DNA from: a virus
DNA length: 64,000 nt
Virus record (IMG/VR): IMGVR_UViG_3300027973_002292
Span: 1-64,000 of that record
Direction: 5' to 3' (one strand)
Shown here: in pieces, positions 26,901 to 49,951 of the stretch
Position numbering within the stretch: the stretch's first letter is position 1
Layout of the letters: every line of letters begins with the position of its first letter
The notes under the pieces: generated by a model
Told to the model about the DNA's origin: nothing
Seen by the model: the letters and a program-made list of their open reading frames with translations, nothing else
Database searches by the model: none
Made by a program: the position numbers and the translations under genes

Positions 26901-28636
26901 TGGTTGGCGCGGTTACGCAGAACGGCAACCAAGTCCTCCACGCTGGTAACTACATCGGTTCCTACATTGCCAATGAAACCAGTTACACGACTGCAATCAA
27001 CGCAAGTGGGTATACTTGGATTCGCATACCTTACGCTAGTGGGTACTCATTTAATGATGGGCAGAGTCCAGTTGAGTTTTACGTAACACGCAGTATTTTT
27101 GCTAACGGCAGCACCCCATACGGTGGACCGACAGCAAAGTTCATCATCCAGAGCAATGAGTGGCACAACGGTCAACAGATGGGGACAGTCCAGTATGGTG
27201 AGCGCGGAGACAGCGCAAGCTTAGGTGCAGCGAACTGGATAACGCATGCTAAGGTAACAAACTTGGCTGGAGGCGGGTACTGGATGTACCTGCGGCTCAA
27301 AACAGGCACAGCAGCCGGTGTTACATACTACATCCGAAGGTCCGCAGTCGGCGGTCAGGGACTTAACGCCTCTGAAATTGAAGTAACAACTGACCCCGGT
27401 GGCGCGGCTACACTTTATTACGGGTTCAACCTGATCTCAGCGGGTAATGAGGCGAGGTTTTATCGCGATGGAAATCAGGTGCTAGACGCTGGTAACTACA
27501 CCAGCTACCCAGACGCCACTAAGTTACCATTGGCTGGAGGCACACTCACAGGTTCATTATTTCTTTCGTCAGTGACTGCCGGCACAAGCACAACTTGTTT
27601 AGTTCTAGAGTCTAACGGAGAAGTTAGAACAAAAGTAAACGCTGCAAGCTCTGGCTCGTCTGGTTCATCTGGAGCAAACGGCGGCGCAGGCGGAGCTGGA
27701 CCTCCAGGGCCTCCCGGAGGAGCTGGAGGAACTGGATCTAGCGGATCTAGCGGTTCATCTGGAGCAAACGGCGGCCCAGGAGGACCAGGAGGAACTGGAT
27801 CTAGCGGATCTAGCGGTTCATCTGGAGCAAACGGCGGCCCAGGAGGACCAGGAGGACCAGGAGGAACTGGATCTAGCGGATCTAGCGGTTCATCTGGAGC
27901 AAACGGCGGCCCAGGAGGAGTTGGGCCTCCCGGGCCTCCCGGGTCTCCCGGGAGTGGAACCTCTGGTTCTTCTGGCTCAAGCACAGCAAGTGCATTAGTT
28001 GCAGCAAATAGTTATACAGTCGCGGAATTAAACGTCTCGACTTCGGCTTATCCTTCGCTATATGTAACATCTACTGGAGGCGCGGCATCAATAAGGCTTT
28101 TAGCGTATTCAAGTTCAAATTATATACAATCAGCGACTTCCGCAGGCTCTGGTAGTGCTGACCTGATTTTTAGTAGTGGAGGAGCCGCTAGTGAGTGGAT
28201 GCGTATACTAGGAACTAACGGTAACATTGGCATAAAAACTGCAAGCCCTGGGTATCATTTAGATGTAAATGGAAACGTCCACGCAGTATCTCATCCAACC
28301 TCTTCAGATGTTAGATTTAAAAAGAATATTAAGCCAATAGAAAATGCTCTTTCTAAAGTACTAAAATTAAGAGGAGTAAAATACGAATGGAATGAATTCA
28401 TAAACAACACAAGAGACGGATACGATTTAAATTCTCCTATCATTGGGTTCATTGCTCAAGAATTGGAACTCATCGTGCCCGAATTGGTCTCTAAATGGAA
28501 ACTTAACGAAGACTGCCAAGACGCAAGAGCTGTAGATTACCCAAGAGTTGTTGTCTTATTAACAGAAGCTATAAAAGAACAGCAAGCACAAATAAATGAC
28601 TTAAAAACAAGAATTTCTATTTTAGAAAATAAATAA
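23987..28636 (+). CDS. Second long fibre protein with collagen-like segment and C-terminal S74 chaperone
   Basis: Repeats GNQVLHAGN..ALPIGGGTLTG and WSGITSKPTTLxGFGITDA; GPP/GSS segment at 27645-27980; SDVRFKKNI...IGFIAQE...VDY S74 motifs. Confidence 0.85.
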   Translation: MASLQGTTVNNYLRTLEQVRAMGWYGTPTGTSYTALGAELGVSGGEAYLLCYNRDTSAYGVLNIAGSASNLRISGSVFNLQTGSLQQAGNQVLHAGNVATYALPIGGGTLTGALNGTSAAFSGAVSGASLSISGASSLNRINLNSATNAIIQYRSPGQGTSTLNFPFYNNVSNGSICIEMADNDTGGLMIDNEGVTVYGAGDIGEVFRVIDEDVYQSNSNITLSRTFWINQGLNGGGGILGAFTISGNTAIHAGNVATYALPIGGGTLTGGLSGTTGSFSGDLSIAGYYQIRGGDPTITFRDTNNRTAYIHVNNDIFYVLSGPADSAFGNWGTVANGRWPMELNISNNNATFGADVNAISFTGAGTGLTGTASSLSIGGNSANVNISNLATQQVSISLAAGSWYTIAANDSNRASAKFTITDTSSGLHQAIHFYATAHYGTDSGAKISVISNTYYGGPPVSAIKIMKGSTYDGAMVQIYAMSACALTVSIYDNQQSSGWVIKSGVVSTTNPGTVAAFASLTTIAAAVDLSAAKSFSVSDEIYIGGATTQYKALHTNNYNSYALPLSGGAITGNSTFSADNYLTFGPNSSWSRYLRIGGNGYTAPVTTTASVVTTNGNLHLDAAKAAGMAIYLNWYGGAGGTIFGNGSGTQVGAVDSAGNTSFIGTLAITGAITGASFSGAGTGLTGTAASLTAGAVPWSGITSKPTTLAGFGITDAAAINGASNQTFSASAIYQYEWLRIMTDAGIYWQSGTYAGWHIYPQAAWGMSLRSASTDCGLQLRRSDNTLLGSLYSDGTSIGFLNASNGWGASFTIAGAMNRGSVPGSLVTGNISGNAGSATNVSWSGITSKPTTLSGFGITDALPLAGGALTGTVSIDTSGTGVNSTVAIKRSGQGVVNFGSYAGSWRSALQIQSNANDRMLFFVPPEADYQYGVIRSINGGLKIDVGGTTGNGGGNAISIETSGAVSMPGTLNVVGAVTQNGNQVLHAGNYIGSYIANETSYTTAINASGYTWIRIPYASGYSFNDGQSPVEFYVTRSIFANGSTPYGGPTAKFIIQSNEWHNGQQMGTVQYGERGDSASLGAANWITHAKVTNLAGGGYWMYLRLKTGTAAGVTYYIRRSAVGGQGLNASEIEVTTDPGGAATLYYGFNLISAGNEARFYRDGNQVLDAGNYTSYPDATKLPLAGGTLTGSLFLSSVTAGTSTTCLVLESNGEVRTKVNAASSGSSGSSGANGGAGGAGPPGPPGGAGGTGSSGSSGSSGANGGPGGPGGTGSSGSSGSSGANGGPGGPGGPGGTGSSGSSGSSGANGGPGGVGPPGPPGSPGSGTSGSSGSSTASALVAANSYTVAELNVSTSAYPSLYVTSTGGAASIRLLAYSSSNYIQSATSAGSGSADLIFSSGGAASEWMRILGTNGNIGIKTASPGYHLDVNGNVHAVSHPTSSDVRFKKNIKPIENALSKVLKLRGVKYEWNEFINNTRDGYDLNSPIIGFIAQELELIVPELVSKWKLNEDCQDARAVDYPRVVVLLTEAIKEQQAQINDLKTRISILENK

Positions 28637-33343: not shown

Positions 33344-34225
33344 ATGAGCGAAGACATGCAACTAAAGTGGAAAGTAACAGCAATGGACTGCTACCCTGAG
33401 TTCAGCGGCGCAACCGATTATGTGTTTAACGTCCACTGGGACTGCTTGTCTTATTATAACGGCGTAAGCGGCGGGCCATACTATGGTAGAGTTTATAGCG
33501 TAACTAGCATTCCAGCCGCTCCTGGGCCAGCCACGCCTTACCTTGACTTGCAGGAAAATCAAGTGTTAGATTGGGTTTATTCGGTTTTTCAATCTGGAGA
33601 TAAAGAAAGATTTGAAAACTCATCAATTCAACAAATAGTTAACCAAATTGCTCCTCCAGTAGTAACTCCTCCAGCTCCTTGGCCCGCAGATATATTTCCA
33701 GTTATTGCCCCGTCCATTACAATACAGCCTCAATCTGGCATTTCTTTATGGTCTGGGCAGAATATCTATGTGTCATTAATGGCTGCCGGCCAACCTCTAA
33801 ATTATCAATGGAGAAAAGATTCTGAAAATCTATCAGGAGTGAATGGAGACGGATTACAAATTTTAAACATACAACTAGATCAAGCTGGGCTCTATGATGT
33901 TGTAGTATCGAACTCTTTGGGGTCAGTTACAAGTTCTGGGTGCCAAATTTCTGTCGCTCCTCCAGTTGTTCCAGTGATAGTAGATCAACCAGCGGGAGGA
34001 GAAGCCGTTACTGGATCTTCATTTATATTTAATGTAATAGCGACGGGATATCCGACTCCATCTTATCAATGGATGTTTAATAGTTCAGAGATTTCTGGAG
34101 CTGTATGGGCAGGATATGATTTACCGAATTTGCAAGAGAATCAAGCCGGAGATTATACGGTTAAAGTATCTAATGCTGCTGGAGAAGTTTTGAGTAATGT
34201 TGCTCATTTGAATGTTGTAATTTGA
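33344..34225 (+). CDS. Fibre-associated protein with two I-set immunoglobulin-like domains
   Basis: N-terminal WKVTAMDCYP...VFNVHW domain; two Ig repeats PxIxxQP...YQW...AGxYxVxVSN. Confidence 0.8.
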   Translation: MSEDMQLKWKVTAMDCYPEFSGATDYVFNVHWDCLSYYNGVSGGPYYGRVYSVTSIPAAPGPATPYLDLQENQVLDWVYSVFQSGDKERFENSSIQQIVNQIAPPVVTPPAPWPADIFPVIAPSITIQPQSGISLWSGQNIYVSLMAAGQPLNYQWRKDSENLSGVNGDGLQILNIQLDQAGLYDVVVSNSLGSVTSSGCQISVAPPVVPVIVDQPAGGEAVTGSSFIFNVIATGYPTPSYQWMFNSSEISGAVWAGYDLPNLQENQAGDYTVKVSNAAGEVLSNVAHLNVVI

Positions 34226-36289: not shown

Positions 36290-37426
36290 ATGCCAAGAAA
36301 TAGAGTAATTTACCAAAGCGACGCTGTATATTCAGCACCAACAGGAGAAGCTACGCTCTCTGCGGCAAATCACAGCCTCAGAAGAGTCCAGAGTTGTAAC
36401 TACAACTTTAGCATTCAACGTCAAGATATTAATCAATTTGGAGAGCTAGCGGCTATTGATAGGTTGATTATTCAAGAGCCTACGGTAGCGGTTGATTTAT
36501 CTTATTACTTTGAGCCAACAGGGTTCAATGAAAGGCATTTAGGTCTAAGAACCAATGCTGTCACAGGCGTGTCTAGCATTGCAGATCACATGCTAGATTT
36601 CATTATAGCTAGCGGAGCTGATTATAATCAAAAAAATATATTTATTATGACTAGTGACGCTGGTATCGATGCCAACGATACTACGGCAATGGCAGTTACA
36701 TCGAACTACGATGGTATCATTGGTATTGGTAACGCATTCTTAACTTCTTGGTCTCTAGAAGCTGCTGTAGGAGGAATCCCAACAGTAACTTGCGCTCTAG
36801 AAGGGCAAAATATAGTATTTACTGGCGGAATTTCAACTTTAGTAGCTCCAAATCCATCTATCGTAAATGGAACTGATCCTGGCACAACAGTCACTTTACC
36901 AGCTGGAGCTGGATCGTTTGATGCGACAGCAGAAGTTGCGGCAATAAGACCCGGTGACGTTACATTGTTTTTAGGCACTACTGATACAGACGACAAGCCA
37001 ATGGTTGGTCTATCTGAGGCTGATTTGAAGATTCAAAGTGCTAGCGTATCATTAACAATCAATCGCGAACCAATCAGAAAACTTGGAAATACATTCGCAT
37101 TTGCAAGAGAAATAACATTCCCAATTAACTGCACAATGTCTGTAAATGCAGTAGTTGGTGACTTAGCCAATAATAGATTATTTAGTCTTGTTAATAGAGC
37201 TTGCGACGATGGTACTAAATATACAGCAATGCTAACTCTAAACGGTTACAAAGGTTCTACTTGCACAGCAAATTTTGCTCAGATTATTCTAAAGGGAGCT
37301 AAGTTAGATTCTCAAAATATAACCTCTTCTATAGGACCAAATAAGACTGTCACCTTTGAGCTCTCTGCTCAAATCGGCAAAAACTCTGGATTGCACTTCA
37401 GATCTTCGCAAACGAATAATCCATAA
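36290..37426 (+). CDS. Major tail tube protein
   Basis: RVQSCNYNFSIQRQDINQFGE and a second tube-like half (IQSASVSLTINREPIRKLG); strong SD; followed by a terminator; upstream of chaperones and TMP. Confidence 0.75.
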   Translation: MPRNRVIYQSDAVYSAPTGEATLSAANHSLRRVQSCNYNFSIQRQDINQFGELAAIDRLIIQEPTVAVDLSYYFEPTGFNERHLGLRTNAVTGVSSIADHMLDFIIASGADYNQKNIFIMTSDAGIDANDTTAMAVTSNYDGIIGIGNAFLTSWSLEAAVGGIPTVTCALEGQNIVFTGGISTLVAPNPSIVNGTDPGTTVTLPAGAGSFDATAEVAAIRPGDVTLFLGTTDTDDKPMVGLSEADLKIQSASVSLTINREPIRKLGNTFAFAREITFPINCTMSVNAVVGDLANNRLFSLVNRACDDGTKYTAMLTLNGYKGSTCTANFAQIILKGAKLDSQNITSSIGPNKTVTFELSAQIGKNSGLHFRSSQTNNP

Positions 37427-37443
37427 TTTTAAATTAATGAAAC

Positions 37444-37474
37444 AAACCCTCGCCTTAACTGGCGGGGGTTTTTT
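37444..37474 (+). terminator. Rho-independent terminator
   Basis: AAACCCTCGCC-TTAACT-GGCGGGGGTTT followed by a T run. Confidence 0.88.
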
Positions 37475-37517
37475 ATTTTATATTTATTACTATTATTCTT
37501 TTATAATAGATAGGAAT

Positions 37518-37799
37518 ATGGATAATTTAAAACTAAAAGAGTATGTAAAGTTCCAAATTGATCGGGGCGTTATTTCTCTATACAAAAAATACTTTGAAAT
37601 GGTTGAAGATTTACACAAAGAACATTTGCTTCTTTTGGAAAAAGTTAAAGACAAAACGTCTGAAGACTTTGTAAAAAACATTGATTATTTTGATACTGAT
37701 AAATATAATTATATACGCAAAAAGATTTTGGACGCTGGCAACGACACAATAAGAACAATTGATGCCAATCTTAAGTCTGTAAACGTAACTTTAAAATAA
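37518..37799 (+). CDS. Hypothetical protein (start moved to ATG 37518)
   Basis: The upstream extension crosses the terminator; TATAAT at 37502 and AGGA precede ATG 37518. Confidence 0.7.
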   Translation: MDNLKLKEYVKFQIDRGVISLYKKYFEMVEDLHKEHLLLLEKVKDKTSEDFVKNIDYFDTDKYNYIRKKILDAGNDTIRTIDANLKSVNVTLK

Positions 37800-37801
37800 A
37801 T

Positions 37802-38515
37802 ATGAAAGAAAAATGGCTCCACGTTTTTACATTAGATAAAACGCAAAAGGTAAAAGAAACGATTGTTGAAAAAGACGAATCTGGAAACGAAGTGCAGATT
37901 ACTAAAGAAGTAGAGAAGAAAGTCCCTCAACGTTTTTGTATCTTAAAGCCTACCAGAAAGATACAAGATGATTCTTCTATTTTTTATTCTGTTAAGGTCT
38001 CTGAGGCTATTAAACTAGGATTAATAACTAAAGCATTTTTGCTGAGGAAATTTCAAAAGGATGGAGTTCTAGCTTCAGATGACGAGAAGAAGGAATATAC
38101 GAATAATTATTCTAGAGCTATAATGATAGAGGTAGACGCTGAAAAGATTAAGAATGACTCTAGCCTTTCAGATGCTGAGAAGGATCTTAAGATTGCTAAT
38201 ATTAATGATGACTATAAGTCTTTGAGACAAAAGCTTTTTGATTACGAAAGCGTTCAAAATTCTTTATTTGATAATACGGCAGAAAAGAGAGCTGCGGATT
38301 TGCTCAATCTTTGGTTTGTACTAAACTTGCTATATTCAGGAGACGAAGGTTCCGAAACTTGCCTTTTCGGAGATGGAACTTTTGACCAAAGAATGGAAAG
38401 GTTGAATCAAATTGAAGACTCTGAAGATCAATTCTTAACTGGAGTTGTTGAAAAGGGAGCCTTCTTGATTGGCCAATTGAATTCAGGCGTTAGCAAGGAA
38501 GACCTTGTAACCTAA
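37802..38515 (+). CDS. Putative tail assembly chaperone
   Basis: Charged helical 237-aa ORF between tube and TMP genes. Confidence 0.55.
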   Translation: MKEKWLHVFTLDKTQKVKETIVEKDESGNEVQITKEVEKKVPQRFCILKPTRKIQDDSSIFYSVKVSEAIKLGLITKAFLLRKFQKDGVLASDDEKKEYTNNYSRAIMIEVDAEKIKNDSSLSDAEKDLKIANINDDYKSLRQKLFDYESVQNSLFDNTAEKRAADLLNLWFVLNLLYSGDEGSETCLFGDGTFDQRMERLNQIEDSEDQFLTGVVEKGAFLIGQLNSGVSKEDLVT

Positions 38516-38520
38516 TAGAT

Positions 38521-39513
38521 GTGACAGACACTTATACAAAAATAAATTTACTAAAAAGTTTATACGGAGAAATTTGCTTGGGCTTTTCTGAGTTTGAACA
38601 TTCAGGAAAGCCTATTTTTATTAGACATTTCACAGAGATAGAAAATGGAATGCTCAATAAGAAAAGAGAAGCATTTCTCAAGGAGGCTGTCGAGAAAGGT
38701 TTAGATCAAAAAGAAGACAAGCTAATTTTCTTAATGCGGGAAAATATTTGGGATAGAGAAAATGAAATACGAATAGAATCTCTAAAAAAACAAATATCAG
38801 ACACTAACTTAATCCTTCAGAATTTGATAGTAAAGAAGCAAATTAATGAAACTAAAAGTAGAATAAAATTGCTAGAAACCGAAGCCTCAGAATTAGAAAA
38901 AGAAAAATCTTATCTTTTAGGTTTTTGTGCTGAAGATTATGCGGAAAAGTTATTTAATGAGCTGTTTATATTTCAAGCTTTCTTTAAAAACGAAGATCTT
39001 AAAGAGAGGTATTTTACAAAAGAAGAATTCGAAGAGTTAGATGAAATAGAACTTACAGATCTTGTGAGGTCTCTAAATTTATTTTATCAAAAATTTTCAC
39101 TTAAAGAAATCAAAAGAGTAGCTGCTTGTTCGTTTTTAATGAGCTTATTTCATTTATGTAATGATAACGCTTATTACTTTTACGGTAAGTATATTAAAGA
39201 CTTAACTGTCTTTCAAGCTAATTTATTTTCTCAATGCAAGTACTTTAAATCATTAATACAAAACAAAGCTCAAGCTAACCCTCCCGAAGATGTTTCCGAA
39301 GATCCTGATAAGATGATTGATTGGTACGAAATGGTGATAAATTCTGACATTGGAAAGGCTGACGATAACGTTTTAGGAGTTGGCCATATTGGAGCTTCTA
39401 CAGAAGAATTGCAAAAGATGGCGGGCGGAGGAGCTTCCACATTGTCAGAAATAGCTAAAAAGAAAGGAAATAAGCTTACTAGAGAAGATTTTATTAAAAT
39501 GCATGGAATATAG
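38521..39513 (+). CDS. Putative second tail assembly chaperone
   Basis: 330-aa ORF (GTG start) just upstream of the TMP; DLTVFQ...PPEDVSEDPDKMIDW motif. Confidence 0.55.
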   Translation: MTDTYTKINLLKSLYGEICLGFSEFEHSGKPIFIRHFTEIENGMLNKKREAFLKEAVEKGLDQKEDKLIFLMRENIWDRENEIRIESLKKQISDTNLILQNLIVKKQINETKSRIKLLETEASELEKEKSYLLGFCAEDYAEKLFNELFIFQAFFKNEDLKERYFTKEEFEELDEIELTDLVRSLNLFYQKFSLKEIKRVAACSFLMSLFHLCNDNAYYFYGKYIKDLTVFQANLFSQCKYFKSLIQNKAQANPPEDVSEDPDKMIDWYEMVINSDIGKADDNVLGVGHIGASTEELQKMAGGGASTLSEIAKKKGNKLTREDFIKMHGI

Positions 39514-39541: not shown

Positions 39542-42500
39542 ATGTCTACTACAATTACAGCGGGACTTAGAGTTGATACGTCTGCGGCTTACAAAGATAT
39601 TGATCTTTTTAAGTCAAGAATAAATAAAAGCTTCAGTCAACCACTAGGAAGAATTAGTGGTGACGCAGCAGAGTTTTCTAAATCACTGCAAGCAGCCGCT
39701 GCCCGCGTAACAGCATTCGGGGCTACTACTGGAAGCATTTATTTAGTTACTAAAGCTATCTCAGAAACAGCAAGAGCCACAATAGAAGTAAATAAACAGT
39801 TAACAGAACTAAATACTTTCTTAGGAGAGTCTGAGTCTAGTCTTCAGAACTTTAGCAAAACTTTATTTTCAATCGCTAGAAATACAGGCTCAACTTTTTC
39901 TGACGCTACAGAAGCTGCTAAAGAGTTCGCCAGACAAGGCTTGTCAACTGAAGAGACATTAACCAGAACTAACGATGCGCTTGTCTTATCTAGAATTTCT
40001 GGTTTAAATTATGCTCAATCGGTAAACAGTATAACGACTGCTCTTAACGGTTTTAGTAAAGAAGCTTTAACTAGCACAGATATCATAAATAAGCTAATTG
40101 CTGTTGACACAAGATTTGCAGTTAGCTCTAAAGACCTAAGCGAAGCTCTAACCCGCGTAGGAAGTGCTGCTGAAGAAGCCGGCTTGTCTTCTGATCAATT
40201 GGTTGCTACAATTACTACTGCCCAACAAATCACTGGTCGTGGCGGTGCTGTAATCGGTAACGCTTTAAAAACAATCTTTACAAGAGTAAGAAGACCAGAA
40301 ATATTAGATCAGCTTAAGCAAATCGGAGTAGTCGTTACTGATCAAAATGGATCTCTGCTTAATGCTATTGATATTCTTAAGAACTATACGAATGTAACAA
40401 AAAATCTAAGCCAAGCTGAAAAATCAAGAACAGCAGAGCTTCTTGGCGGTGTTTATCAGATTAACCAATTACAATCAGTCATTAGAGACTTGGGAAGCGC
40501 CAACAGTATTTATGCAAGCTCTCTTAAGATTTCTATAGGAGCTACAGATGAGGCTATTAAGAAAAATTCCGAATTAAATAAAAGCTATGCTGCGCTAATT
40601 AATGACACTGCAAATTTAGCAACGCAAGTTGGGTCGGATATAGGTAAAAGCTTGTTTGGGCCAATTATTTCTGGCGGGGCTGGTGTTACAAAAGCAATAT
40701 TAGAATTTCTTTCTCCAGAGAGCATTGCTCCTCAAATTGGTAAAGCTGGGCAAGAAATTGGAAAAAATTTATCTAGAGAAATTGGTAAGGGAGTTCTAGA
40801 CACGCTTGGTAATGCATTGGTTTTCGTTGGAGCGCCAGTTGCGGCTGTAGTTGCTGGGTCTATAGGTAAAAGGCTGCTTTCGTTTTTAGGCGCATCAGTA
40901 AAAACGCAAATAAAAGGCATCACAGATCCATTAGGGAGAGTCGTTACGGGAGGCTCTTTCAGCGGAGATAAAGAAAGAGAGCAATTAAATTTAATAAATC
41001 AAATTTCAGATGTTGTAAAGAAAAATAATTTTATTGGTGAAGCTACCGTTAAGGGAGTCTATAATGAAGGCAAAGCTAGAAGAGAGGTTTTAAAAGAAAT
41101 TTTAGCACAAAATTCTCTACTAGAAAGACAAGCAAATTTAGCCCAAACAATTTTTAATACAATAAGTAAAATAAAGCCCACTGTTACAACTATAGGGCAA
41201 GTAAATTCTTTTGGATTAAATCAAGTTAACCCAAGGAGAAATGCTAAAGGAAGATTTGTTGCTTCTGGATATATTCCAAATTTTTCAATGGGATTAGCAG
41301 AACAAGAAGAGTCTGCTGCAAAAGGGTTCGGAGCCAAAAATCCTAAGGCTCGATTAATCAGAGCTACAATCAAAGGTAAAACTGGCCCAGTAATGATTAA
41401 CGACGAAGAGGATGTGGTTCCTAATTTCGCTGGCACAGGAGAAACAGCAATCATTCCTAGATACAGAAACGTTAAAGACATCCCCAGAATGGCTAAGGGA
41501 TATGTTCCTAATTTTAGTAACGCATCAGGAAGTTTTGGAACTGTTTCTAAGATTAATGAAAGCCAAGTTAGAAAAGAGTTTTTTTCTGGAGCAGGACAAT
41601 CAGGAGCAGGAGAAATAGCTAATGAATTTTTGGCTTCTAGAAAATTATCTGAGCAGATTCAAGCAAGCAGAGAGCTTGGTTATCAGGGCATGCGTGGAGG
41701 ATATATAGGAAAACTTTTTGAGGCTCCTCATACATATGGCACATTAGAAGACTCTATTAGATCTGGATCTATAGTCAAAGGCTTAGCTCCGGGAAAAACC
41801 GCCAAAGATATCGGAGATAATCTAGATAAATATACAGGAGAGTATAAAAATTATTATGAATTAGTAACAAATTTGGGAAGACTATCTGCTAAACAAATCA
41901 ACTCTGGAAAAGCAATGGAGGCCAGAGATTTAGCTAATTTTGGAAATTTAATGCTTAATAAAAAAGCAGAAGATCTTATTACTAAAATAGTTTCCAGAAA
42001 AGGGAGCGATAGACTTGTAGGGAAAATGAATAGTTCTTGGCAATCTACTAGTAGAGTAGCAGAAGGATTAGCTAGACAAGGAGCAAGAATTAGTATAGTT
42101 GATCCAGGTATTTTTGGAGGCTTAGGCGAAAAGAGAAAAAAAGAATTAGCAAAACTTGGCTATCAAGATAATTATCGTGAAATGACTGGGGCAAATGCTG
42201 CTGGTTATATTCCTAATTTTGCTAAAAAAGATAAATATAAATTCCCAAATATTTCTTCTAATAAGATGGAAGCAAATATTGGCAAAAATTTTGAAAAACT
42301 AACCCCTGAGAATCAAAGATATTTCGCAAGAGCTTACGAAGATTACAACAATTTAATTAAAGTTTTTTCTAAGGCTTCTGGAACTTCTCCAGAAAAGTTT
42401 GCTAATGTAATGTCTGCCCTTTCTCCTGCTAACCCATTAGAGAGAAACGCATTAGACGCTTTAAGATATAACTTGTTCTACCAAAAGAAACTCTCAACAG

Positions 42501-45500
42501 CAGCTTCTCCAATTTTCATAGACGAAAGAGAAATAGGGTCGGTAAAGGCTCAAACATATGGAGCAAACAGAACTAAAGCTGCAAATTTACTTGTTGGTTT
42601 AGAAAAGCTTACAGGAAATAAGAGAAAATCGTTCGTAAACAACATGTTAGATCCATTTCAAAGCACGGATGTTACAGTTGACTACAGAGCTCAAGGCGAC
42701 GCATTGAATAAACAATTTAATGTAAAAAATGCCCCTTCTATGAATAGGGAGCAATATGATAAAGTTTCCCAAGCGTTCAGAAACGTTGGATCTAAAGCAG
42801 GCGTTAGTGGTTTGGGGGTTCAAGCAGCGACTTGGATTGGTGGAAGAATGGGTTCTAAAGCTGCAAGAGGACAAGATTTCAATAGAGGAATTTTAAAATT
42901 TTTCTATGATAATCCAGATAAGATTAGTTTAGAGAATCTTGAGTTTTTGCTTTCTGTTCCAGGAAAAGGAAAGGCTAGAAAGGATTTCTTTAAAAACGCT
43001 TCAGCGATGGGTGTTTCTAAATTGGGATCTGATAGTCTTATTTCAATTCCAAGGGTAGGCGGGTATGTTCCTAATTTTGCAGGGTTTAATTTATCTACTA
43101 TAAGATTCTTGACTAAAGCTAGTGCTAAAATGTCTGGTTCAGTTCTTTCGCCTAAAACGTTAATAAAATTTGCTACTGGAAAAGGAAAAGTGGAGGATCT
43201 TGTAAATCCATTCTTAGATTTCTTAAAAAAACCTGCTGATCTTATTAATAGCCCTCAAGATTTAGAGGATGCAAAATCTGTTATAAATCTTATATTTAAA
43301 AATAATCAAGCTAGAGAAATGGCAGCTAGCAGGCTAGCTCCAATTATTAATGAGTCAAGTTTTAGTGTTAAATCTCAAGAAGAAGCGGTTTCTACAGGAA
43401 TACAATACCCCGACGGCGGAAGAGGCTATAGAGACTATAGAGATTTTTTACGTTATAAATTATTGGGCGGCCAAAAAGAATACGAAGAGTATGTAGGCAA
43501 CGAGTATGGCCCAAAAGCTTTAATTAAAAATAAAGATGGAAGTTATAGATTCAATCCGAAATCTACACAAGGACAATTAGAGTTGTCTGATGTTAGACAA
43601 GCAGCTAAAGTTTTATTTTCTACTCCAGAACAAATTGCTGAATCGAGAGCATTAATGGTTGGCAGGGATGTCCAAAAACAGTATAAAGCAAGAAAATTAG
43701 GACCAGAAGATAATGTTCCTGGACCTAACCCATTTTTAGGCTATACATATAAATTAGGAAGATTTATTGGTAACGTAGGAAAGAAAAGAAAAGCTGTAAA
43801 ATACACAGATAGATGGGATGTAGAATTACACCAAGGAGAAAGAGATGTGATGGAGAATTTTTTAAAAAACACATCTGAAATTTCAGATTTAGAGACAAGA
43901 AAACAAGTCGCCAATTATTATATAGATAGAGACTTAAGCGATAGTAGTTACGCTGGAGATATAAATAGTTTAATAGTGAAAGAATTATTATCTTCTATTC
44001 CTGGAGCAAACCCAATACTTTTAAAAGGCGCAGCTAGAGCTCCAAAAGGAGAGAGCATTTTCGCAAAAGGCTATATTCCTAATTTCTCTGGCTTATCTGA
44101 TTCAATAAGCAGAGAGAAATCTATGACTGGTCTTCCGGTTTCTCAAATCATGGCTCATTTTGATAAGAGCGGAAATCCAATAGCAGTAACAAACAAAAAA
44201 GATGAGCCTAATGGTCTCAAAGATGTAGTCCCAAATTTTGCACCGAGAGTAAAGGTTCCAAAAACTCCAAGAGGTAAAAAAGGAACAACTGCGGCTCAAG
44301 TTTCTGATTTATTTAGTTCTTTTTTTGGTGAGTCAATTGGAATAGGGCTTTTTCAATCTTTATCAAGCACATTAGCTGACAGAGAAGTCTTGTCTGAAGA
44401 TGTTAATACAGCAACGCAAATTGGTGCGCCTGCTCTCCTGGCGATTTTGCAGGGCATGAGAGGCTTAAAAGCTTCTAAAGGTCAAAAGCTGGGAGCAAGA
44501 GCTGCAGCGTTAGGCGTACCAGTAGCTTTAGGGGGAGCGCAAGCAGCCATGGGGTTTTATGCTTCCAGATCTGTTGGCGAAGATCTCCAAAGAAGAAAAC
44601 TTGAAAAAGAATCAGACAAAGCAGCAAAAGAGTTTAAAGACTTAACAGAAGGAACTCAAGAACTTGCAGATACTCTGTCCAAATTAAATGAATCTTTTAA
44701 AGACGCCTCATCGTCTCCAGAGCAATTATTTAATTTAAGTAAAAGAGCCTCTGAGTTAACAAAAAACGTAACTAAAAATAATCCTGCACTAGCAGCGGCA
44801 ATTTCTTCAGAGCCTAATGTAGAAAAGAAAATTAATTTAATAGAAGATGCTCGCAGAAAAGCCTCTCAACAACAAGCGGTAAAACAAGAAATCATACAAT
44901 TCGAAGGGTCTAAAACAAAATCTCCAGAAGATTTAATTAATTTATTTTCTAAAGAAATTTCTTTGGCTAATGATAAATTATTGCAATTAAACAGCAAAGA
45001 TTTAGTGCCTGCAAATTTTGATAAAATTCTTTCTGATGCTGATTTAGTGCCTTTAAAAACTTTCTTTGACCTTCAAAAAGAAGAGATAAAAAACAAATTA
45101 ATCCCATCATTTTTAGAGGCTGTAAAATTAGAAATAGAATACAATAAAATAAGTAAAGAAAGCATTAAACAAATAAAAGTTTTAAAAAGCGAAGAGATCA
45201 AAGCTAGCAAAGAGATAGAGGGAAAAAAAGTAAGAAGACAAGCCGGTTTAGAAGCTTTAAAATCGGGAGCTGAAGAGCTGAAGCCTTTTGCCGGTCAATT
45301 CGGGGCTAGAGCAGCTATTTCATTCGAGTCAGATCTTCAAAAAACAAAAGAGTCTATTTCAGCAATTACATCTTTCAGAACTCAAATAAACACAAAGCTA
45401 ATAGACAAAGACTTAAAACTTCCAACTAATGTTACTGATAAATTGCAAGGAATTCAAACTCCTGGGCAAGACGCTGGGGCTGTATTAGCAGAATTATCTA

Positions 45501-48500
45501 AGACTCCTGGTTTAAATGAAAAACAAATAGAAGCTCTAGAAGAATTAATTACTACTAATGAAACCCAATCTAGAGAGCTTAAAAAGATTTCCGACATTTC
45601 AGAAATAAATAAAAATGCTCAGCTTAGGGTTTTAAGTATTCAAGAAAAGTTAACCTATGGCGGCGGCATAAAAACCAGCATAGACTCTAGATCAAGAATC
45701 GATTCTATCAATGCTCCAATAAAGGGCCTTCTAGAAAGCAGACTAGGAGCAACTCTTGGTTCCGAAAGATCTCAAACTTCTGGAATGGTTAATGTAGTTA
45801 AATCTATTAAAGACTTATATCCTGGTCTTATAGAAAATTCTAAAGCTCTTGGGTCTGTAAGAGATAGGTTAACTAATCTTAGAGCTAATGACTTGAGAAA
45901 AGATCTTTTTAGGAACGCTTCTTTATTAGAATCCGCTGGCGGATATGGAGATATTCCTGGAATGCTAAGGGCTAAAGGGCTTGATTCTGAAGGATTGAAA
46001 ACTTTAGCAGCTACTCAAGCCGAAGCGGAGCTATCTGGAGGGAACTCTCCTCAAGAAACTACTAGATACTTAGCGGATGTAATTAAAGCCGCTACTGCTG
46101 ATTTAAATCTAACAATACAAGAAGGCCAACAAATTAAGGCTTTGCAAGAAAAGACTGCTGCTCCAGTAGCAGAAATAAATAAAGAAACTGAAGTCGCTAG
46201 ACAAAAATTTTTAACTTCGCTTACAGATTCTGTAAAAAAAGCTTTTGGAGAAAAAATAGACGTCCAAACTGTAAACATATCTAATGCTAGTGTCAATATA
46301 ACTCCGTCTTCGACATCTCAATCTGGAGAATCTTCTGGCGCAGCCCAAGCTAGGGCTTCCATGGCCACTATGGCATCTGGAGCGTCTGGTCCCAGAAGCA
46401 AAGGGTTTATTCCTTCTTTCTATAACCCCTTAAGAGAGGCGGTCCAAAGAGAAAGCCAATATGTTCCATTTAGTTCAATAAGAATTAACAAGAGCAATAA
46501 ATTAATAAATCAAAATAACCCACTAGGTTTAGGCGTGACTAATACAATTGATGAGCCAAATGGTTTAGCAAGTATTGGTTTAGCTTCAAAGGGATATGTT
46601 CCTAATTTTGCTTCTAAATCTAAAATTTTAGATAAAGTTCTAACAGATAAAAGTTTGTATGGGCCTAAAATATCTAAACAAGCTCAAGGATTGGCTAAGA
46701 AAGGTGAATTATGGGGTCTTGATTACGCAGCTTCTAATCCAAAGAAGGGAGATTACGTTCTATATAAAATAAAACCAGATGGCTCTTTAGGAGAAAGAGG
46801 TATGCCAAATAAAGGCGATACCGTTTTGAGCCACGTTGCAGCAAGCAAGTTCTTAGGAGGAGTAAAAGATCTCCTTCCTATATCTAAATTAGCTGAACCT
46901 CCAAAGAGTCAAGAAGCTTCGTTGGCTGGCGGAACTATTTTACCAACTTCAAGCATAGATAAGATAATCAGAGATGTTAAAAAGAAAGGCGGATCAGCTA
47001 CAGATCTTCAAAAAGCTGTAGAAACATTTGCTAAACAAAATTTATCTACATCTAATTTCTTAATTAAAACTGGAGTAGGCGATTTGTCAATCCAAAGCAA
47101 AGGAGTTTTCGGAATCAATTCAAAGCCACTAGATTCTTCAGCTTATGGAACAATTTTAAATGATTATGGAAGAGGAAAAGGTAAAAGTTCAGATTTCTTT
47201 ATTCAAGAAAAAGCTCAACTTTCTGATCAACATAATGAGTCAAGAGTACATGTAGCTATTGATGGGAAAGGCAACGTTAAACTTGTAAGGAATGGAACTA
47301 TAGACAAATCAACAGGAGGGAACCTTGCTAAAGGGTCTTATAGAAGAGCTGCGGAAAGAGCCGCTTTGCAAGCTGCCGAAGCATTCGTTAAAGCTAATCC
47401 AAAATTGGCAAAAAATCAATTTTTAGGTTTAGATGTAGGAGCGGTCGCAGCTACAGAAGGTAAGAGACTTGGGTTAACAACAAAACCTTTTAGCGAGTTG
47501 GGCCAAAAATTTAATCCAATTGTTTTTGAAATAAACCCAACAAGCAGAAGAGGAAGTCAAGGCGGATCTGGATTCGTTTCCGCTGAAAACCCTTTTTCAA
47601 AAGCAAGCCCATCTGTTTTTAATTCTATTTTATCAAGACTTGGAGTTAAATCAAATAATAAATTAGTCCAATCTAACGTTTTAGAAGCCTTATCTAAGGG
47701 AGTAATGGGAAATGATACATTATTAGGATCTGTAAAAAATAAAATTGCAGATACAAATATTCCATTTCCAAGCTCATTTTTTGGAAAAGTCAAAGGAGCT
47801 TTTTCAAGCAGTTCTTCTAAAGTTAAGTCTTTGTTCCAGAATGCTGGAGCTAAAATTTCAAATCTTGGCAATTCAGTTTTTGGTTCAGTTGGCTCTAAGT
47901 TTTCTGGTGTAACCGACAAAATTGGAGCTGGGTTATCTGGTCTCACTGGAAGAGTTAAAGGAGGCTTAGGGGGCATGGCGGCTGGGTTATCTGGTCTCAC
48001 TGGAAGAGTTAAAGGAGGCTTAGGGGGCATGGCGGCTGGGTTATCTGGTTCCTCTGGAAGAGTTAAAGGAGGTCTTTCTGGAGTTTTGACTGGATTAGGA
48101 TTTTTGGGCAATGTGCAGCAAATAGGGGAAAATAGGGAAGCTGATAGAAATTTAGAGGAGTATCTTTCAAAAGCAGCTGCTACATCCATTATACCCGCTG
48201 CGGCACTTGGTCTTACAGACTTTCTTGCGGGGGGGAAACTTTCGGCTAAGCATGAGGTTATTAAGGGTAAGATAGGTAAGGTAGCATCGAAAGGTTTACA
48301 AGCCGCTTCAGCTTTTAGCACCGCTGCCGAATCAGCAACAGAGTTTAGAGAAGGAAATTTCGGATTAGGGGCAGTAAAAGGAGCCGAAGCGGCAGCTTAT
48401 GCTGCTTCGCTGTTCGAAGGGGTAGGCAAAACGTTACCTAAGGGAAAAGGCCTTTTAGGCTCGCTTGGTAATGTTACTCCAAAAGCTTTATCTCAAGTAG

Positions 48501-49951
48501 GCGGAAAAGCATACGGAATAGGCTCTGCTTTGGGCTTAGGCGCAGAGATAGCTAAAGCTAAGGATAACGCTATAGCTGAAGACTATTCTGACATACTATT
48601 TGGCAAAAAAGAAGAGGATATAGATCCTGAGACTGGAGAAGTGACCAAGGGAAGATCTATACTAGGTGCAGGATTCGATGTTTATGGAACCGCTATGGGT
48701 GCTATAGCTGGCGGACCAGTTGGTCAAGGAGTAGCTGCATTTAAGATAGGCTATAGAGCCGGAAATGTAATAGAAAATCAAGCTGGCCTTGGAGAAAAAC
48801 TCGGCAAAATATATGAAGATAAAATCAATAAAGAAAGAGGTGGAGAAATAGCCATTAGAGAAGCTAGATTAAAAGCAAAGAAAGAGCTCTTTAAAGACGC
48901 AAAAGATCTTGAAATCAGGATAGCTAAAATAGAAGAGCAGGGCAAAAAAGGCGTAGAAGAAGAGAGAATTAAAGGAGCAAAAGGTCTTGCTGAAGTTTAT
49001 AAGGGATCTCAAGCCGATAAAGAGAAAAACGACAAAGAAAAAACAGCCCCTTTGAGAAAAGGAATTATAGAAGGTATTGTAAAAAATCAAGAGGCTAATG
49101 GCTTATTCACCTCAAGAGACAAGGCCAATTACTTGATGAGCCAAGAAGCTATCTATGGAAAATTTAAGCCCGAAGAATTTGCAGACAAGGAACTCTACAA
49201 GTCTTACGAAGCTTATTCTAAAGAAAGAGAAACTACTCAAGCAAGAGAGCAAAAATTTAATTCTGCAGTAATGAATCCAGAAATGGCTGGATCTCAAACC
49301 TATAAAATTGATCAATTTAGAGCCGAATCAGAAAGACAATCTGCTATGTTAGCTTCTGCGCCAAAAGACGCTTTAGAAGAAGCTATGAGAAGGGGAGTCT
49401 CTGTTGAGCAGGTAATAGAAGAGAGAAAAAAGATTAATAAATCTAGAGGCTTTATTCCTAACTTCTCTAACGCTTACAATAGAGAAAAATTAGACATCCT
49501 TAGAAATCCAGATTACTCTGGCTATAGAAACGCTGTTCCTCAGCCATCTAAATACTATAAAAATATAGTAAAAAACAGCGCAGAGATTGAAGTCCCGGCA
49601 GCTGAGGTTTATAACAGAATGGGATATTTTGGAGCAACCCCAAAGAACCCTTCCGAGCAATACGCTATTCTCAATCCAGCTCAGCAATCTAAATTGGGAT
49701 ACGCTTCAGGCGGATTCGTGCCAAACTTTGCTGCTGAACAATTTGCTGGCGCTGTTAGTGACGCTATGCAAAAAGCGCTATCTCCATTAATAGACAAGGT
49801 CGGAACTTCAGTTAGTAACTCTAATGTTATTAATGTAAGCGATCAAAGATCTTATCAAACTGGCTCCGATAGAATTACTGGTATAATGGAATTCTTATAT
49901 TCTCAATTCCCTAAGGAAATGGGAAGACAAATGGGCCCTAAACTAGTATAA
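39542..49951 (+). CDS. Tape measure protein (3469 aa) with embedded enzyme-like domains
   Basis: N-terminal TMP core (EFARQGLS...DKL/NKLIAVD...GAVIGNALKTIFTR...LKQIGV); position after tube and chaperones; 11 PNF-type motifs delimiting globular inserts. Confidence 0.88.
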   Translation: MSTTITAGLRVDTSAAYKDIDLFKSRINKSFSQPLGRISGDAAEFSKSLQAAAARVTAFGATTGSIYLVTKAISETARATIEVNKQLTELNTFLGESESSLQNFSKTLFSIARNTGSTFSDATEAAKEFARQGLSTEETLTRTNDALVLSRISGLNYAQSVNSITTALNGFSKEALTSTDIINKLIAVDTRFAVSSKDLSEALTRVGSAAEEAGLSSDQLVATITTAQQITGRGGAVIGNALKTIFTRVRRPEILDQLKQIGVVVTDQNGSLLNAIDILKNYTNVTKNLSQAEKSRTAELLGGVYQINQLQSVIRDLGSANSIYASSLKISIGATDEAIKKNSELNKSYAALINDTANLATQVGSDIGKSLFGPIISGGAGVTKAILEFLSPESIAPQIGKAGQEIGKNLSREIGKGVLDTLGNALVFVGAPVAAVVAGSIGKRLLSFLGASVKTQIKGITDPLGRVVTGGSFSGDKEREQLNLINQISDVVKKNNFIGEATVKGVYNEGKARREVLKEILAQNSLLERQANLAQTIFNTISKIKPTVTTIGQVNSFGLNQVNPRRNAKGRFVASGYIPNFSMGLAEQEESAAKGFGAKNPKARLIRATIKGKTGPVMINDEEDVVPNFAGTGETAIIPRYRNVKDIPRMAKGYVPNFSNASGSFGTVSKINESQVRKEFFSGAGQSGAGEIANEFLASRKLSEQIQASRELGYQGMRGGYIGKLFEAPHTYGTLEDSIRSGSIVKGLAPGKTAKDIGDNLDKYTGEYKNYYELVTNLGRLSAKQINSGKAMEARDLANFGNLMLNKKAEDLITKIVSRKGSDRLVGKMNSSWQSTSRVAEGLARQGARISIVDPGIFGGLGEKRKKELAKLGYQDNYREMTGANAAGYIPNFAKKDKYKFPNISSNKMEANIGKNFEKLTPENQRYFARAYEDYNNLIKVFSKASGTSPEKFANVMSALSPANPLERNALDALRYNLFYQKKLSTAASPIFIDEREIGSVKAQTYGANRTKAANLLVGLEKLTGNKRKSFVNNMLDPFQSTDVTVDYRAQGDALNKQFNVKNAPSMNREQYDKVSQAFRNVGSKAGVSGLGVQAATWIGGRMGSKAARGQDFNRGILKFFYDNPDKISLENLEFLLSVPGKGKARKDFFKNASAMGVSKLGSDSLISIPRVGGYVPNFAGFNLSTIRFLTKASAKMSGSVLSPKTLIKFATGKGKVEDLVNPFLDFLKKPADLINSPQDLEDAKSVINLIFKNNQAREMAASRLAPIINESSFSVKSQEEAVSTGIQYPDGGRGYRDYRDFLRYKLLGGQKEYEEYVGNEYGPKALIKNKDGSYRFNPKSTQGQLELSDVRQAAKVLFSTPEQIAESRALMVGRDVQKQYKARKLGPEDNVPGPNPFLGYTYKLGRFIGNVGKKRKAVKYTDRWDVELHQGERDVMENFLKNTSEISDLETRKQVANYYIDRDLSDSSYAGDINSLIVKELLSSIPGANPILLKGAARAPKGESIFAKGYIPNFSGLSDSISREKSMTGLPVSQIMAHFDKSGNPIAVTNKKDEPNGLKDVVPNFAPRVKVPKTPRGKKGTTAAQVSDLFSSFFGESIGIGLFQSLSSTLADREVLSEDVNTATQIGAPALLAILQGMRGLKASKGQKLGARAAALGVPVALGGAQAAMGFYASRSVGEDLQRRKLEKESDKAAKEFKDLTEGTQELADTLSKLNESFKDASSSPEQLFNLSKRASELTKNVTKNNPALAAAISSEPNVEKKINLIEDARRKASQQQAVKQEIIQFEGSKTKSPEDLINLFSKEISLANDKLLQLNSKDLVPANFDKILSDADLVPLKTFFDLQKEEIKNKLIPSFLEAVKLEIEYNKISKESIKQIKVLKSEEIKASKEIEGKKVRRQAGLEALKSGAEELKPFAGQFGARAAISFESDLQKTKESISAITSFRTQINTKLIDKDLKLPTNVTDKLQGIQTPGQDAGAVLAELSKTPGLNEKQIEALEELITTNETQSRELKKISDISEINKNAQLRVLSIQEKLTYGGGIKTSIDSRSRIDSINAPIKGLLESRLGATLGSERSQTSGMVNVVKSIKDLYPGLIENSKALGSVRDRLTNLRANDLRKDLFRNASLLESAGGYGDIPGMLRAKGLDSEGLKTLAATQAEAELSGGNSPQETTRYLADVIKAATADLNLTIQEGQQIKALQEKTAAPVAEINKETEVARQKFLTSLTDSVKKAFGEKIDVQTVNISNASVNITPSSTSQSGESSGAAQARASMATMASGASGPRSKGFIPSFYNPLREAVQRESQYVPFSSIRINKSNKLINQNNPLGLGVTNTIDEPNGLASIGLASKGYVPNFASKSKILDKVLTDKSLYGPKISKQAQGLAKKGELWGLDYAASNPKKGDYVLYKIKPDGSLGERGMPNKGDTVLSHVAASKFLGGVKDLLPISKLAEPPKSQEASLAGGTILPTSSIDKIIRDVKKKGGSATDLQKAVETFAKQNLSTSNFLIKTGVGDLSIQSKGVFGINSKPLDSSAYGTILNDYGRGKGKSSDFFIQEKAQLSDQHNESRVHVAIDGKGNVKLVRNGTIDKSTGGNLAKGSYRRAAERAALQAAEAFVKANPKLAKNQFLGLDVGAVAATEGKRLGLTTKPFSELGQKFNPIVFEINPTSRRGSQGGSGFVSAENPFSKASPSVFNSILSRLGVKSNNKLVQSNVLEALSKGVMGNDTLLGSVKNKIADTNIPFPSSFFGKVKGAFSSSSSKVKSLFQNAGAKISNLGNSVFGSVGSKFSGVTDKIGAGLSGLTGRVKGGLGGMAAGLSGLTGRVKGGLGGMAAGLSGSSGRVKGGLSGVLTGLGFLGNVQQIGENREADRNLEEYLSKAAATSIIPAAALGLTDFLAGGKLSAKHEVIKGKIGKVASKGLQAASAFSTAAESATEFREGNFGLGAVKGAEAAAYAASLFEGVGKTLPKGKGLLGSLGNVTPKALSQVGGKAYGIGSALGLGAEIAKAKDNAIAEDYSDILFGKKEEDIDPETGEVTKGRSILGAGFDVYGTAMGAIAGGPVGQGVAAFKIGYRAGNVIENQAGLGEKLGKIYEDKINKERGGEIAIREARLKAKKELFKDAKDLEIRIAKIEEQGKKGVEEERIKGAKGLAEVYKGSQADKEKNDKEKTAPLRKGIIEGIVKNQEANGLFTSRDKANYLMSQEAIYGKFKPEEFADKELYKSYEAYSKERETTQAREQKFNSAVMNPEMAGSQTYKIDQFRAESERQSAMLASAPKDALEEAMRRGVSVEQVIEERKKINKSRGFIPNFSNAYNREKLDILRNPDYSGYRNAVPQPSKYYKNIVKNSAEIEVPAAEVYNRMGYFGATPKNPSEQYAILNPAQQSKLGYASGGFVPNFAAEQFAGAVSDAMQKALSPLIDKVGTSVSNSNVINVSDQRSYQTGSDRITGIMEFLYSQFPKEMGRQMGPKLV
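47927..48072 (+). repeat. 54-bp tandem repeat x2.7 inside the TMP (AGLSGLTGRVKGGLGGMA)
   Basis: Identical units at 47927-47980 and 47981-48034, partial third copy. Confidence 0.92.

Follow-up and report, generated by a model that had tools for sequence, protein, structure and literature searches.

The tape measure protein (TMP) whose gene lies in the first 64,000 nucleotides of the IMG/VR virus record IMGVR_UViG_3300027973_002292 (this whole stretch is called the window below) is divided by a short peptide that recurs along the chain, and comparison with its relatives indicates that related phages exchange whole modules at this peptide. We suggest, with a probability of about 0.6, that the TMP is a modular carrier of enzymes for delivery into the host, with the joint peptide at every module border. 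Known already are TMP-borne enzymes (wall hydrolases, the peptidase of T5 pb2 and the RNA polymerase of P23-45) and polyvalent multi-enzyme proteins, while a TMP with a motif-fenced, reshuffled array of enzyme-like domains is apparently undescribed, no description of one having been found.

The product of the open reading frame (ORF) 39542-49951 is identified as a TP901-type TMP by its family matches. These are PF10145 at aa 113-301 in the Pfam scan (E 1.4e-28, 100.6 bits vs a cutoff of 33.2) and TIGR01760 at aa 68-371 in the NCBIfam scan (E 6.1e-34, 117.6 bits vs a cutoff of 28.8); 13 of the 14 PHROG families matching the protein are named tail length tape measure protein.

A short peptide at the module borders

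A six-frame search of the window for the pattern [GD][YFV][IV]P[NS]F gives 11 copies, every one in the TMP reading frame, and none in the other five frames. The strict G-type motif has no further copy in the six frames of the whole 127,648-bp genome. From composition 0.0005 copies are expected, and 20,000 shuffles gave at most one. The nine G-type and two DVVPNF copies that the first-pass annotation of this DNA had listed are borne out; its DVVPNF coordinates are exact, whereas those of the G-type copies lie 6 nt upstream of the Gly codon and take in the two preceding residues. A degenerate 12th copy, AIIPRY at aa 636-641 (nt 41447-41464), is also present in the relative L001. The motif-fenced architecture of the TMP, as that annotation described it, is confirmed.

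When 264 distinct G-type contexts from 51 proteins are compared, the motif extends to [AS]-x-G-[YF]-[IV]-P-N-F-[AS]. Ala or Ser occupies position -2 in 94% and position +6 in 91% of the contexts, and both positions lay outside the search pattern. Position -3 holds hydrophobic residues or Arg. Conservation stops beyond the Ala/Ser flanks, which points to a short linear motif. The 11 copies differ by synonymous codons, so the constraint acts on the peptide. A signal at the DNA level, or a frameshift signal, was considered and rejected: just two copies among the 11 contain the sequence CCA AAT TTT with its slippery A-AAT-TTT heptamer, and codon use varies synonymously between copies.

The peptide accompanies this type of TMP widely. 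With aa 560-1600 as query, a word-indexed search brought up 50 proteins of 1969-4722 aa, all 50 of which carry the motif in 3-12 irregularly spaced copies. An exhaustive search by HMMER, with aa 650-1520 as the query, produced 115 hits, including seven more distant giants with 2-7 copies; most of the 115 are stand-alone proteins of about 200 aa that match the DUF7178 part. Four viral contigs found through the N-terminal core (N) all encode motif-bearing TMPs with 3-13 copies, two of them cut by the contig end, and their N cores are 41-69% identical. Among 99 short proteins recovered, mostly stand-alone DUF7178, the motif occurs in one, which resembles a TMP piece. Hence the peptide belongs to the carrier and not to a cargo domain. 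A word search for shorter stand-alone homologues yielded seven hits, again TMP-piece-like and mostly on contigs under 8 kb. One partial TMP in NCBI, P0057, bears the label Flavobacterium sp. Neither megablast with the gene nor tblastn with aa 576-1566 found a relative in the 'phages' collection.

The 51 proteins were cut at the motif, the pieces were clustered into families, and the families were compared by hmmsearch. The frame of these proteins is constant: N, the cargo array, the scaffold part H1, a second slot with the scaffold part H2, and the C-terminal piece Ct. The array within this frame is variable, with 31 cassette orders and 26 families in the 41 TMPs that hold N and H1, one to eight cassettes of at least 75 aa per array, and array lengths of 272-1783 aa. 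Some long cassette families are composites, in which an internal joint is spelled variantly (GRIPNF, for example) and was missed by the pattern. Cargo modules are separated by single motifs, and scaffold joints by double-motif mini-modules (Table 1). Three of the four mini-modules have a common loose pattern of acidic/RE, G-x-P, a hydrophobic strand and N-x-x-DE-P-x-G.

The borders of exchange fall at the motif. The window TMP has the order f5, f6, f12; its close relative P0003 has f5', f12, f6, f7 with the motif between each, and P0001 has f6, motif, f12, motif, f7. Between P0003 and the window f12 and f6 are 96-97% identical and f5 is 35% identical, and on each side the change in sequence falls exactly at the motif. 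In addition to the order swap, the entire f5 cassette of P0003 has been replaced by a distantly related allele from the same family. The motif stands on both sides of 13 of the 16 f12 homologues and 20 of the 23 f5 homologues, even at an identity as low as 24%; contig-end fragments and spellings missed by the pattern account for most of the others. DNA homology blocks between the window gene and the L001 TMP gene likewise begin and end within a few codons of motifs (for example aa 576-658, 886-1181, 1508-1567 and 2288-2357). The earlier proposals that the motif is a cassette-exchange boundary, and that the cargo varies around a kept scaffold, are both upheld by these comparisons.

Cargo modules and their predicted folds

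The main array was modelled with AlphaFold2 over aa 650-1520 (871 residues) from a block alignment of 33 rows, with a mean predicted local distance difference test score (pLDDT) of 82.9. The model holds three compact, confident globular domains. Its segments with pLDDT <50 and longer than nine residues (model residues 1-14, 233-248, 521-531 and 861-871) are the four motif sites. In line with the first-pass annotation, which gave about 225-330 aa, the inter-motif segments are 229, 280 and 330 aa long; in the model they are globular and not coiled-coil. Neither ordinary helical segments nor an invariant cargo, two of the three refuting conditions named in that annotation, were observed. Its fold guesses also hold for the kinase-like module, for DUF7178 with its likeness to helix-hairpin-helix (HhH) glycosylases and for the ATP-grasp module, and the fourth module is still without a family. 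It had bracketed the ATP-grasp module with the other cargo; the actual site of this module is the second slot after H1, outside the main array.

Structural relatives of the three-domain model were sought in a wide search run without Foldseek pre-filtering (VIA Z scores), of which the best 50 rows were considered. Among these, 47 are protein-kinase-like chains aligned on model residues 1-253, which hold cassette f5. The best matches of f5 are Rv3197 (5yjz_A, Z 9.4, root-mean-square deviation (rmsd) 3.2, 138 aligned) and Rio1 (1zp9_A, Z 9.1), followed by Rio2 and Bud32 (Z 9.0), OspG (Z 8.0) and APH enzymes (about Z 8); the weak Foldseek list for the same model likewise consists mostly of kinases. 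At least 90% of the 8 rows compared keep residues G663, K678, E695, D796, N802 and N806, and every f5 fragment listed has an [IV]D[PT]G segment. The Gly loop, Lys, Glu, D796...N802/N806 and [IV]D[PT]G occur in the order found in kinases, the positions being assigned by this order alone. We suggest that f5 has a protein-kinase-like bilobal fold, a call with weaker support than the other fold calls.

Cassette f6 matches PF23802 (DUF7178) at aa 903-1099 (Pfam; E 2.6e-19, 70.3 bits vs a cutoff of 27). Its predicted fold resembles the HhH DNA glycosylases Tm1821 (3n0u_A, Z 10.4, rmsd 3.6, 175/209 aligned), Pa-AGOG (1xqp_A, Z 8.0) and OGG1 (8vx4_A, Z 7.5), and D1047 is an invariant Asp in its alignment. 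Cassette f12 has no match in the Pfam, NCBIfam or PHROG scans, and the best hit of its PDB sequence search reaches only E 0.053, a guanylate kinase. None of the best 50 rows of the structural search covers model residues 531-860, a result obtained with f12 queried inside the three-domain model and so not implying a new fold. Homologues of f12 are confined to giant TMPs, except for three short pieces, and share the conserved elements YRLxGG, NxD and WDVxL...E. The ESM Atlas gave no named family for f5 and f12 (scores 0.92, for an unnamed cluster, and 0.77) and was uninformative. The four enzyme-like cassettes have isoelectric points of 9.4-9.9, and all modules are basic.

The second slot holds the ATP-grasp module. 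A separate model of aa 2348-2720 has pLDDT 71, with the motif at its start disordered. Foldseek against the PDB gave 48 matches at E <= 0.001, and the matches listed are ATP-grasp enzymes (3tin, 2.4e-5). The second-look aligner placed SAOUHSC_02373 first (7r8q_A, Z 13.2, rmsd 2.9, 169 aligned), followed by DcsG (Z 12.5), Ddl (11.9), LysX (10.8) and RimK (10.0), and the rows listed are ATP-grasp throughout. Judged by its model, aa 2357-2720 adopts the ATP-grasp fold. Columns K108, K162, E219, D284 and E316-x-N318 (numbered from aa 2348) are invariant in the alignment, as is E-x-R-x-H; the Lys and acidic columns, with E-x-N, are candidates for the nucleotide- and Mg-binding residues of the superfamily. 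The module is found in 22 of 58 long relatives, and in the relatives matched it begins within 10 residues of a motif; hence we regard it as cargo of the second slot and not as scaffold.

In the relatives the repertoire is wider. P0017 carries an ART-PolyVal ADP-ribosyltransferase cassette between two motifs (E 6.7e-25), and several cassette families are DUF7178 paralogues. Among the BFVD matches of the three-domain model are multi-domain proteins of uncultured phages that bear the names ART-PolyVal-like, helicase, N-acetyltransferase and SleB-type hydrolase; DUF7178-like folds occur in such proteins, one of them named ART-PolyVal-like.

Table 1. Modules and joint motifs of the tape measure protein (window coordinates; fold names are predictions)
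Feature	Position (nt)	Strand	Description
Tape measure protein gene	39542..49951	+	Uninterrupted frame, 3469 aa, TP901 type
Scaffold part N, TP901-type TMP core	39542..41266	+	aa 1-575; kept in 46/51 proteins
First junction module	41267..41515	+	aa 576-658: GYIPNF, 42-aa mini-module, DVVPNF, degenerate AIIPRY, GYVPNF
Cassette f5	41516..42202	+	aa 659-887, 24.7 kDa; protein-kinase-like fold; pLDDT mostly >88
Single junction motif GYIPNF	42203..42220	+	aa 888; model linker 233-248, pLDDT <50
Cassette f6	42221..43060	+	aa 894-1173; DUF7178, all-helical, resembles HhH DNA glycosylases
Single junction motif GYVPNF	43061..43078	+	aa 1174; model linker 521-531, pLDDT <50
Cassette f12	43079..44068	+	aa 1180-1509, 36.8 kDa; confident alpha+beta fold, no recognised family
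Second junction module	44069..44239	+	aa 1510-1566: GYIPNF, 45-aa mini-module, DVVPNF
Scaffold part H1	44240..46402	+	aa 1567-2287; helix-favouring residues, A+E+L+K+Q = 0.45; 45/51 proteins
Third junction module	46403..46609	+	aa 2288-2356: GFIPSF, 57-aa mini-module, GYVPNF
ATP-grasp domain	46610..47701	+	aa 2357-2720, 38.5 kDa; second cargo slot after H1
Scaffold part H2	47702..49447	+	Gly-rich hydrophobic repeats aa 2721-3010 (20% Gly), helical tail aa 3011-3302
Fourth junction module	49448..49729	+	aa 3303-3396: GFIPNF, 82-aa mini-module, GFVPNF
C-terminal piece Ct and stop codon	49730..49951	+	aa 3397-3469; family in 27 proteins
Mini-modules, small, conserved	41285-41410, 44087-44221, 46421-46591, 49466-49711	+	42-82 aa, motif on both sides, at the four scaffold joints
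Motif first bases	41267, 41411 (DVVPNF), 41498, 42203, 43061, 44069, 44222 (DVVPNF), 46403 (GFIPSF), 46592, 49448, 49712	+	aa 576, 624, 653, 888, 1174, 1510, 1561, 2288, 2351, 3303, 3391

Within H2 the helical tail (aa 3011-3302) is conserved in 42 relatives. At 47900-48150 (about aa 2790-2850) the Gly-rich part holds near-exact tandem repeats with a unit of about 19 residues, such as G-L-S-G-L-T-G-R-V-K-G-G-L-G-G-M-A-A. They resemble a glycine zipper, and a weak Pfam Gly-zipper match is present in P0017. A minus-strand ORF at 47557-48321 overlaps these repeats and is probably spurious.

Proposed delivery of the cargo and rival explanations

The comparisons show the scaffold parts N, H1, H2 and Ct joined by the double-motif modules, and exchangeable domains in two slots, one after N and one after H1. 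Recombination between motif copies adds, drops, replaces or reorders whole domains; with the same peptide of 9-10 residues flanking every module, such exchange can proceed without breaking a fold.

TMPs are reported to depart from the tail before the DNA (PMC10770324 and PMC10038345, both in excerpt). By analogy, this TMP would exit the tail ahead of the DNA and bring its enzymes into the cell, and we think that the enzyme cargo probably enters the host cell together with it. The kinase-like, ATP-grasp and ADP-ribosyltransferase domains would act in the cytoplasm early in infection, for takeover or counter-defence. Their need for ATP or NAD+ leads us to expect cytoplasmic action.

The joint peptide might then be cut at or just after the Pro-x position, thus freeing the modules from the scaffold. 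The model for this step is phage T5, the TMP of which (pb2) is cut after R1127 between the scaffold and the enzyme domain, giving pb2* and pb2C; the cut is made during tail morphogenesis and both parts remain in the tail (PMC10038345, excerpt). In pb2 (1219 aa) the only [YF][IV]P tripeptide lies at 1124-1126 and the cut at R1127 comes one residue later, so that the tripeptide at the cut matches the core of the joint motif. The chance of a single tripeptide lying within three residues of the cut is about 0.6%, by position alone and as an after-the-fact estimate. That the joint peptide is a processing site is the weakest step of the mechanism, and we put it forward tentatively, at somewhat less than an even chance. 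Going farther, the peptide might be a general processing signal of siphophage TMPs and the TMP a true polyprotein, cut by a host or virion protease and releasing into the cytoplasm, on infection and ahead of phage gene expression, a phage-specific, reshuffled set of free enzymes: kinase-like, DUF7178, ATP-grasp, ADP-ribosyltransferase and some twenty unassigned families. This extension we consider rather doubtful.

A number of points weigh against the carrier as proposed. At the level of folds, Foldseek against the PDB gave no match to the three-domain model at E <= 0.001, and because of this the kinase call rests on Z 8-9.4 together with the conserved residues. That range is little above the tool's stated background of 7-8, and the D-to-N spacing of f5 is +6 vs +5 in canonical kinases. 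The glycosylase score of f6 (Z 10.4) belongs to an all-helical fold, lies below the tool's caution level of about 13, and can reflect a common arrangement. Most other cassette families have no Pfam family in the ten relatives scanned. As to cutting, scans of the TMP and of ten ORFs around it (Pfam, NCBIfam, PHROG) showed no protease domain. The Pfam scans of the ten relatives showed no peptidase family either, and a very divergent peptidase could escape such scans. The likeness to T5 amounts to three residues and was noticed post hoc, and lambda gpH has no [YF][IV]P near its C-terminal cut region; the exact cut site in gpH is unknown (PMC12617516, excerpt). As to delivery, the ATP-using enzymes could instead act in the producing cell. 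The lumen of a tail tube is about 4 nm wide by our own estimate, and three chains with folded domains of 25-38 kDa would be hard to fit into it.

The main rival to a processing site is an uncut motif, by which a phage assembly factor (tail assembly chaperone or tube lumen) or a host factor would dock to or handle the TMP, the cargo staying tethered to the TMP conduit and working there. The empty protease search over the TMP and its neighbours favours this explanation, and so does the form of the peptide, which sits in disordered linkers and has the aromatic-aliphatic-Pro-x-aromatic core typical of peptide ligands. Double-motif mini-modules at all four scaffold joints suggest a structural role, and the P23-45 authors hypothesise that their enzyme remains with the TMP pore (PMC10770324, excerpt). 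However, a chaperone that coats the TMP would fit poorly with copies spaced irregularly (45 to about 950 aa) and absent from the long helical H1 and H2. Furthermore, in distant relatives the ORFs upstream of the TMP are on the other strand, so a conserved chaperone position is not evident. On balance we hold docking without cutting to be unlikely.

Two further explanations can be set against the proposed carrier. The motif might have no function, being a recombination scar or a neutral linker homogenised by exchange among its copies. Exchange does occur at the motif, and AT-rich codon use keeps the copies alike over about 15 nt; such a length is, however, short for homologous recombination. 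The copies differ synonymously, and the peptide is kept with its Ala/Ser flanks where scaffold or cassettes are only 24-45% identical, a combination of synonymous variation and deep conservation that indicates purifying selection on the peptide and makes a neutral scar highly improbable. Alternatively, the modules might have a task in the virion or in building it; they could, for instance, modify tail proteins while still in the producing cell, or act on the envelope at penetration. Known TMP-embedded enzymes are indeed mostly cell-wall hydrolases (PMC12617516; for T5 pb2, PMC10038345; both in excerpt), the producing cell supplies ATP, and the ATP-grasp module holds a fixed slot in 22 of 58 relatives. 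No wall hydrolase is found among the recognised folds, however, and the rapid presence/absence turnover and reordering (31 orders in 41 proteins) fit better with conflict-driven cargo than with a function in assembly, while ART-PolyVal and DUF7178 are common to polyvalent-type multi-domain phage proteins. A role in the virion is thus improbable, and we retain the modular carrier as the preferred explanation.

Known systems share single traits with such a carrier. Polyvalent proteins, which occur in phages and conjugative elements (Iyer, Burroughs, Anand, de Souza, Aravind 2017, PMC5512222), are also giant chains of unrelated enzyme domains with extensive mosaicism, and they were proposed to enter with the DNA. 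The ART-PolyVal cassette of P0017 is one likeness; together with the multi-domain BFVD matches it links the cargo repertoire to the polyvalent proteins. Here, unlike in those proteins, the carrier is the TMP and a single repeated peptide stands at every joint. Separation of polyvalent domains was inferred from embedded MPTase peptidases (PMC5512222), whereas family scans found none here; the term 'tape measure' has 0 occurrences in that paper. Thermus phage P23-45 encodes the 5,002-residue TMP gp96 with an N-terminal virion RNA polymerase, which transcribes the pre-early genes and acts in the cytoplasm on entry (PMC10770324, excerpt). It is similar to the window TMP as a giant TMP carrying an enzyme, and so far as the excerpt of this paper goes, it is the proof of principle for TMP-borne enzymes working in the host. 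The enzyme of gp96 is a single fixed N-terminal one, and no cassette array, joint motif or exchange is described in that excerpt. T5 pb2 differs in its one site and one wall-degrading domain, with three shared residues and no cassette exchange. TMPs with embedded peptidoglycan hydrolase motifs (mentioned in PMC12617516, excerpt) and MuF-fused ADP-ribosyltransferase toxins are, like this TMP, virion proteins with an extra enzyme domain; the MuF-VIP2 fusions of Microbacterium phages are predicted virion components (PMC7302621, excerpt). Unlike in the window TMP, these are single terminal or embedded domains, on other carriers and without a repeated joint peptide.

Literature searches with the motif spellings gave no paper in a phage context and one unrelated match, and 'DUF7178' gave none; supplementary proteomic tables lay beyond the reach of these searches. 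Pairing the term 'tape measure protein' with those for polyvalent proteins, ADP-ribosyltransferases, ATP-grasp enzymes, or proteolytic or enzymatic domains or ejection brought up no account of a cassette TMP.

Should the cargo indeed be delivered, the tail ruler would have a second role as a carrier of exchangeable effectors, supplying ready-made enzymes for takeover or counter-defence by a route distinct from that of capsid-packaged proteins. The twenty-odd cassette families without a known family would in that case be a catalogue of candidate early-acting phage enzymes, and if the polyprotein reading is also true, a programmable effector-injection system would be built into the tail ruler. 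The joint peptide is in addition a simple sequence handle by which such carriers can be recognised in metagenomes and the borders of their domains marked. Phage engineering would profit from a natural plug-in joint at which a virion protein can take up further domains. The mechanism and agent of TMP cutting are unknown for T5 and lambda (PMC12617516, excerpt), and the likeness to T5 makes the old question of how and by what TMPs are cut testable.

Gene neighbourhood

The window is the first half of one 127,648-bp contig with 36% G+C. Upstream of the TMP gene lie two giant tail-fibre genes, virion structural genes, an immunoglobulin (Ig)-domain tail protein and a weak tail-tube candidate; the ORFs downstream of the TMP have no family in the scans. 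The tail-tube candidate at 36290-37426 matches PF18906 with E 0.031, below the cutoff, and in the viral contigs L002-L004 a homologue of this tube-like ORF immediately precedes the TMP on its upstream side. None of the 20 ORFs scanned was recognised as a sheath gene, which fits a long non-contractile tail without proving one.

The product of the ORF at 33344-34225 has 293 residues, with DUF7936 at its N terminus and two Ig-like domains, and its PHROG matches are tail protein, major tail protein and Hoc-like decoration. It is possibly a decorated protein of the tail tube or one associated with the tube. The three ORFs just before the TMP, at window positions 37356-39513, have their homologues on the opposite strand and farther upstream in the more distant L002-L004, where the tube-like gene abuts the TMP; hence these ORFs are not fixed in the usual chaperone position.

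No terminal repeat was found between the end and the start of the contig. At its end (about 127,430-127,648, outside the window) the last 20, 50 and 100 bases recur about 117 bases upstream, and we read this as a tandem repeat. The adjacent giant ORFs at 17684-23980 and 23987-28636 (2098 and 1549 aa) have matches to many PHROGs of tail fibres, among them collagen-like minor tail and long-tail-fibre distal subunits. Where the second of them lies, G+C rises to a local peak of 0.52 (26001-28000).

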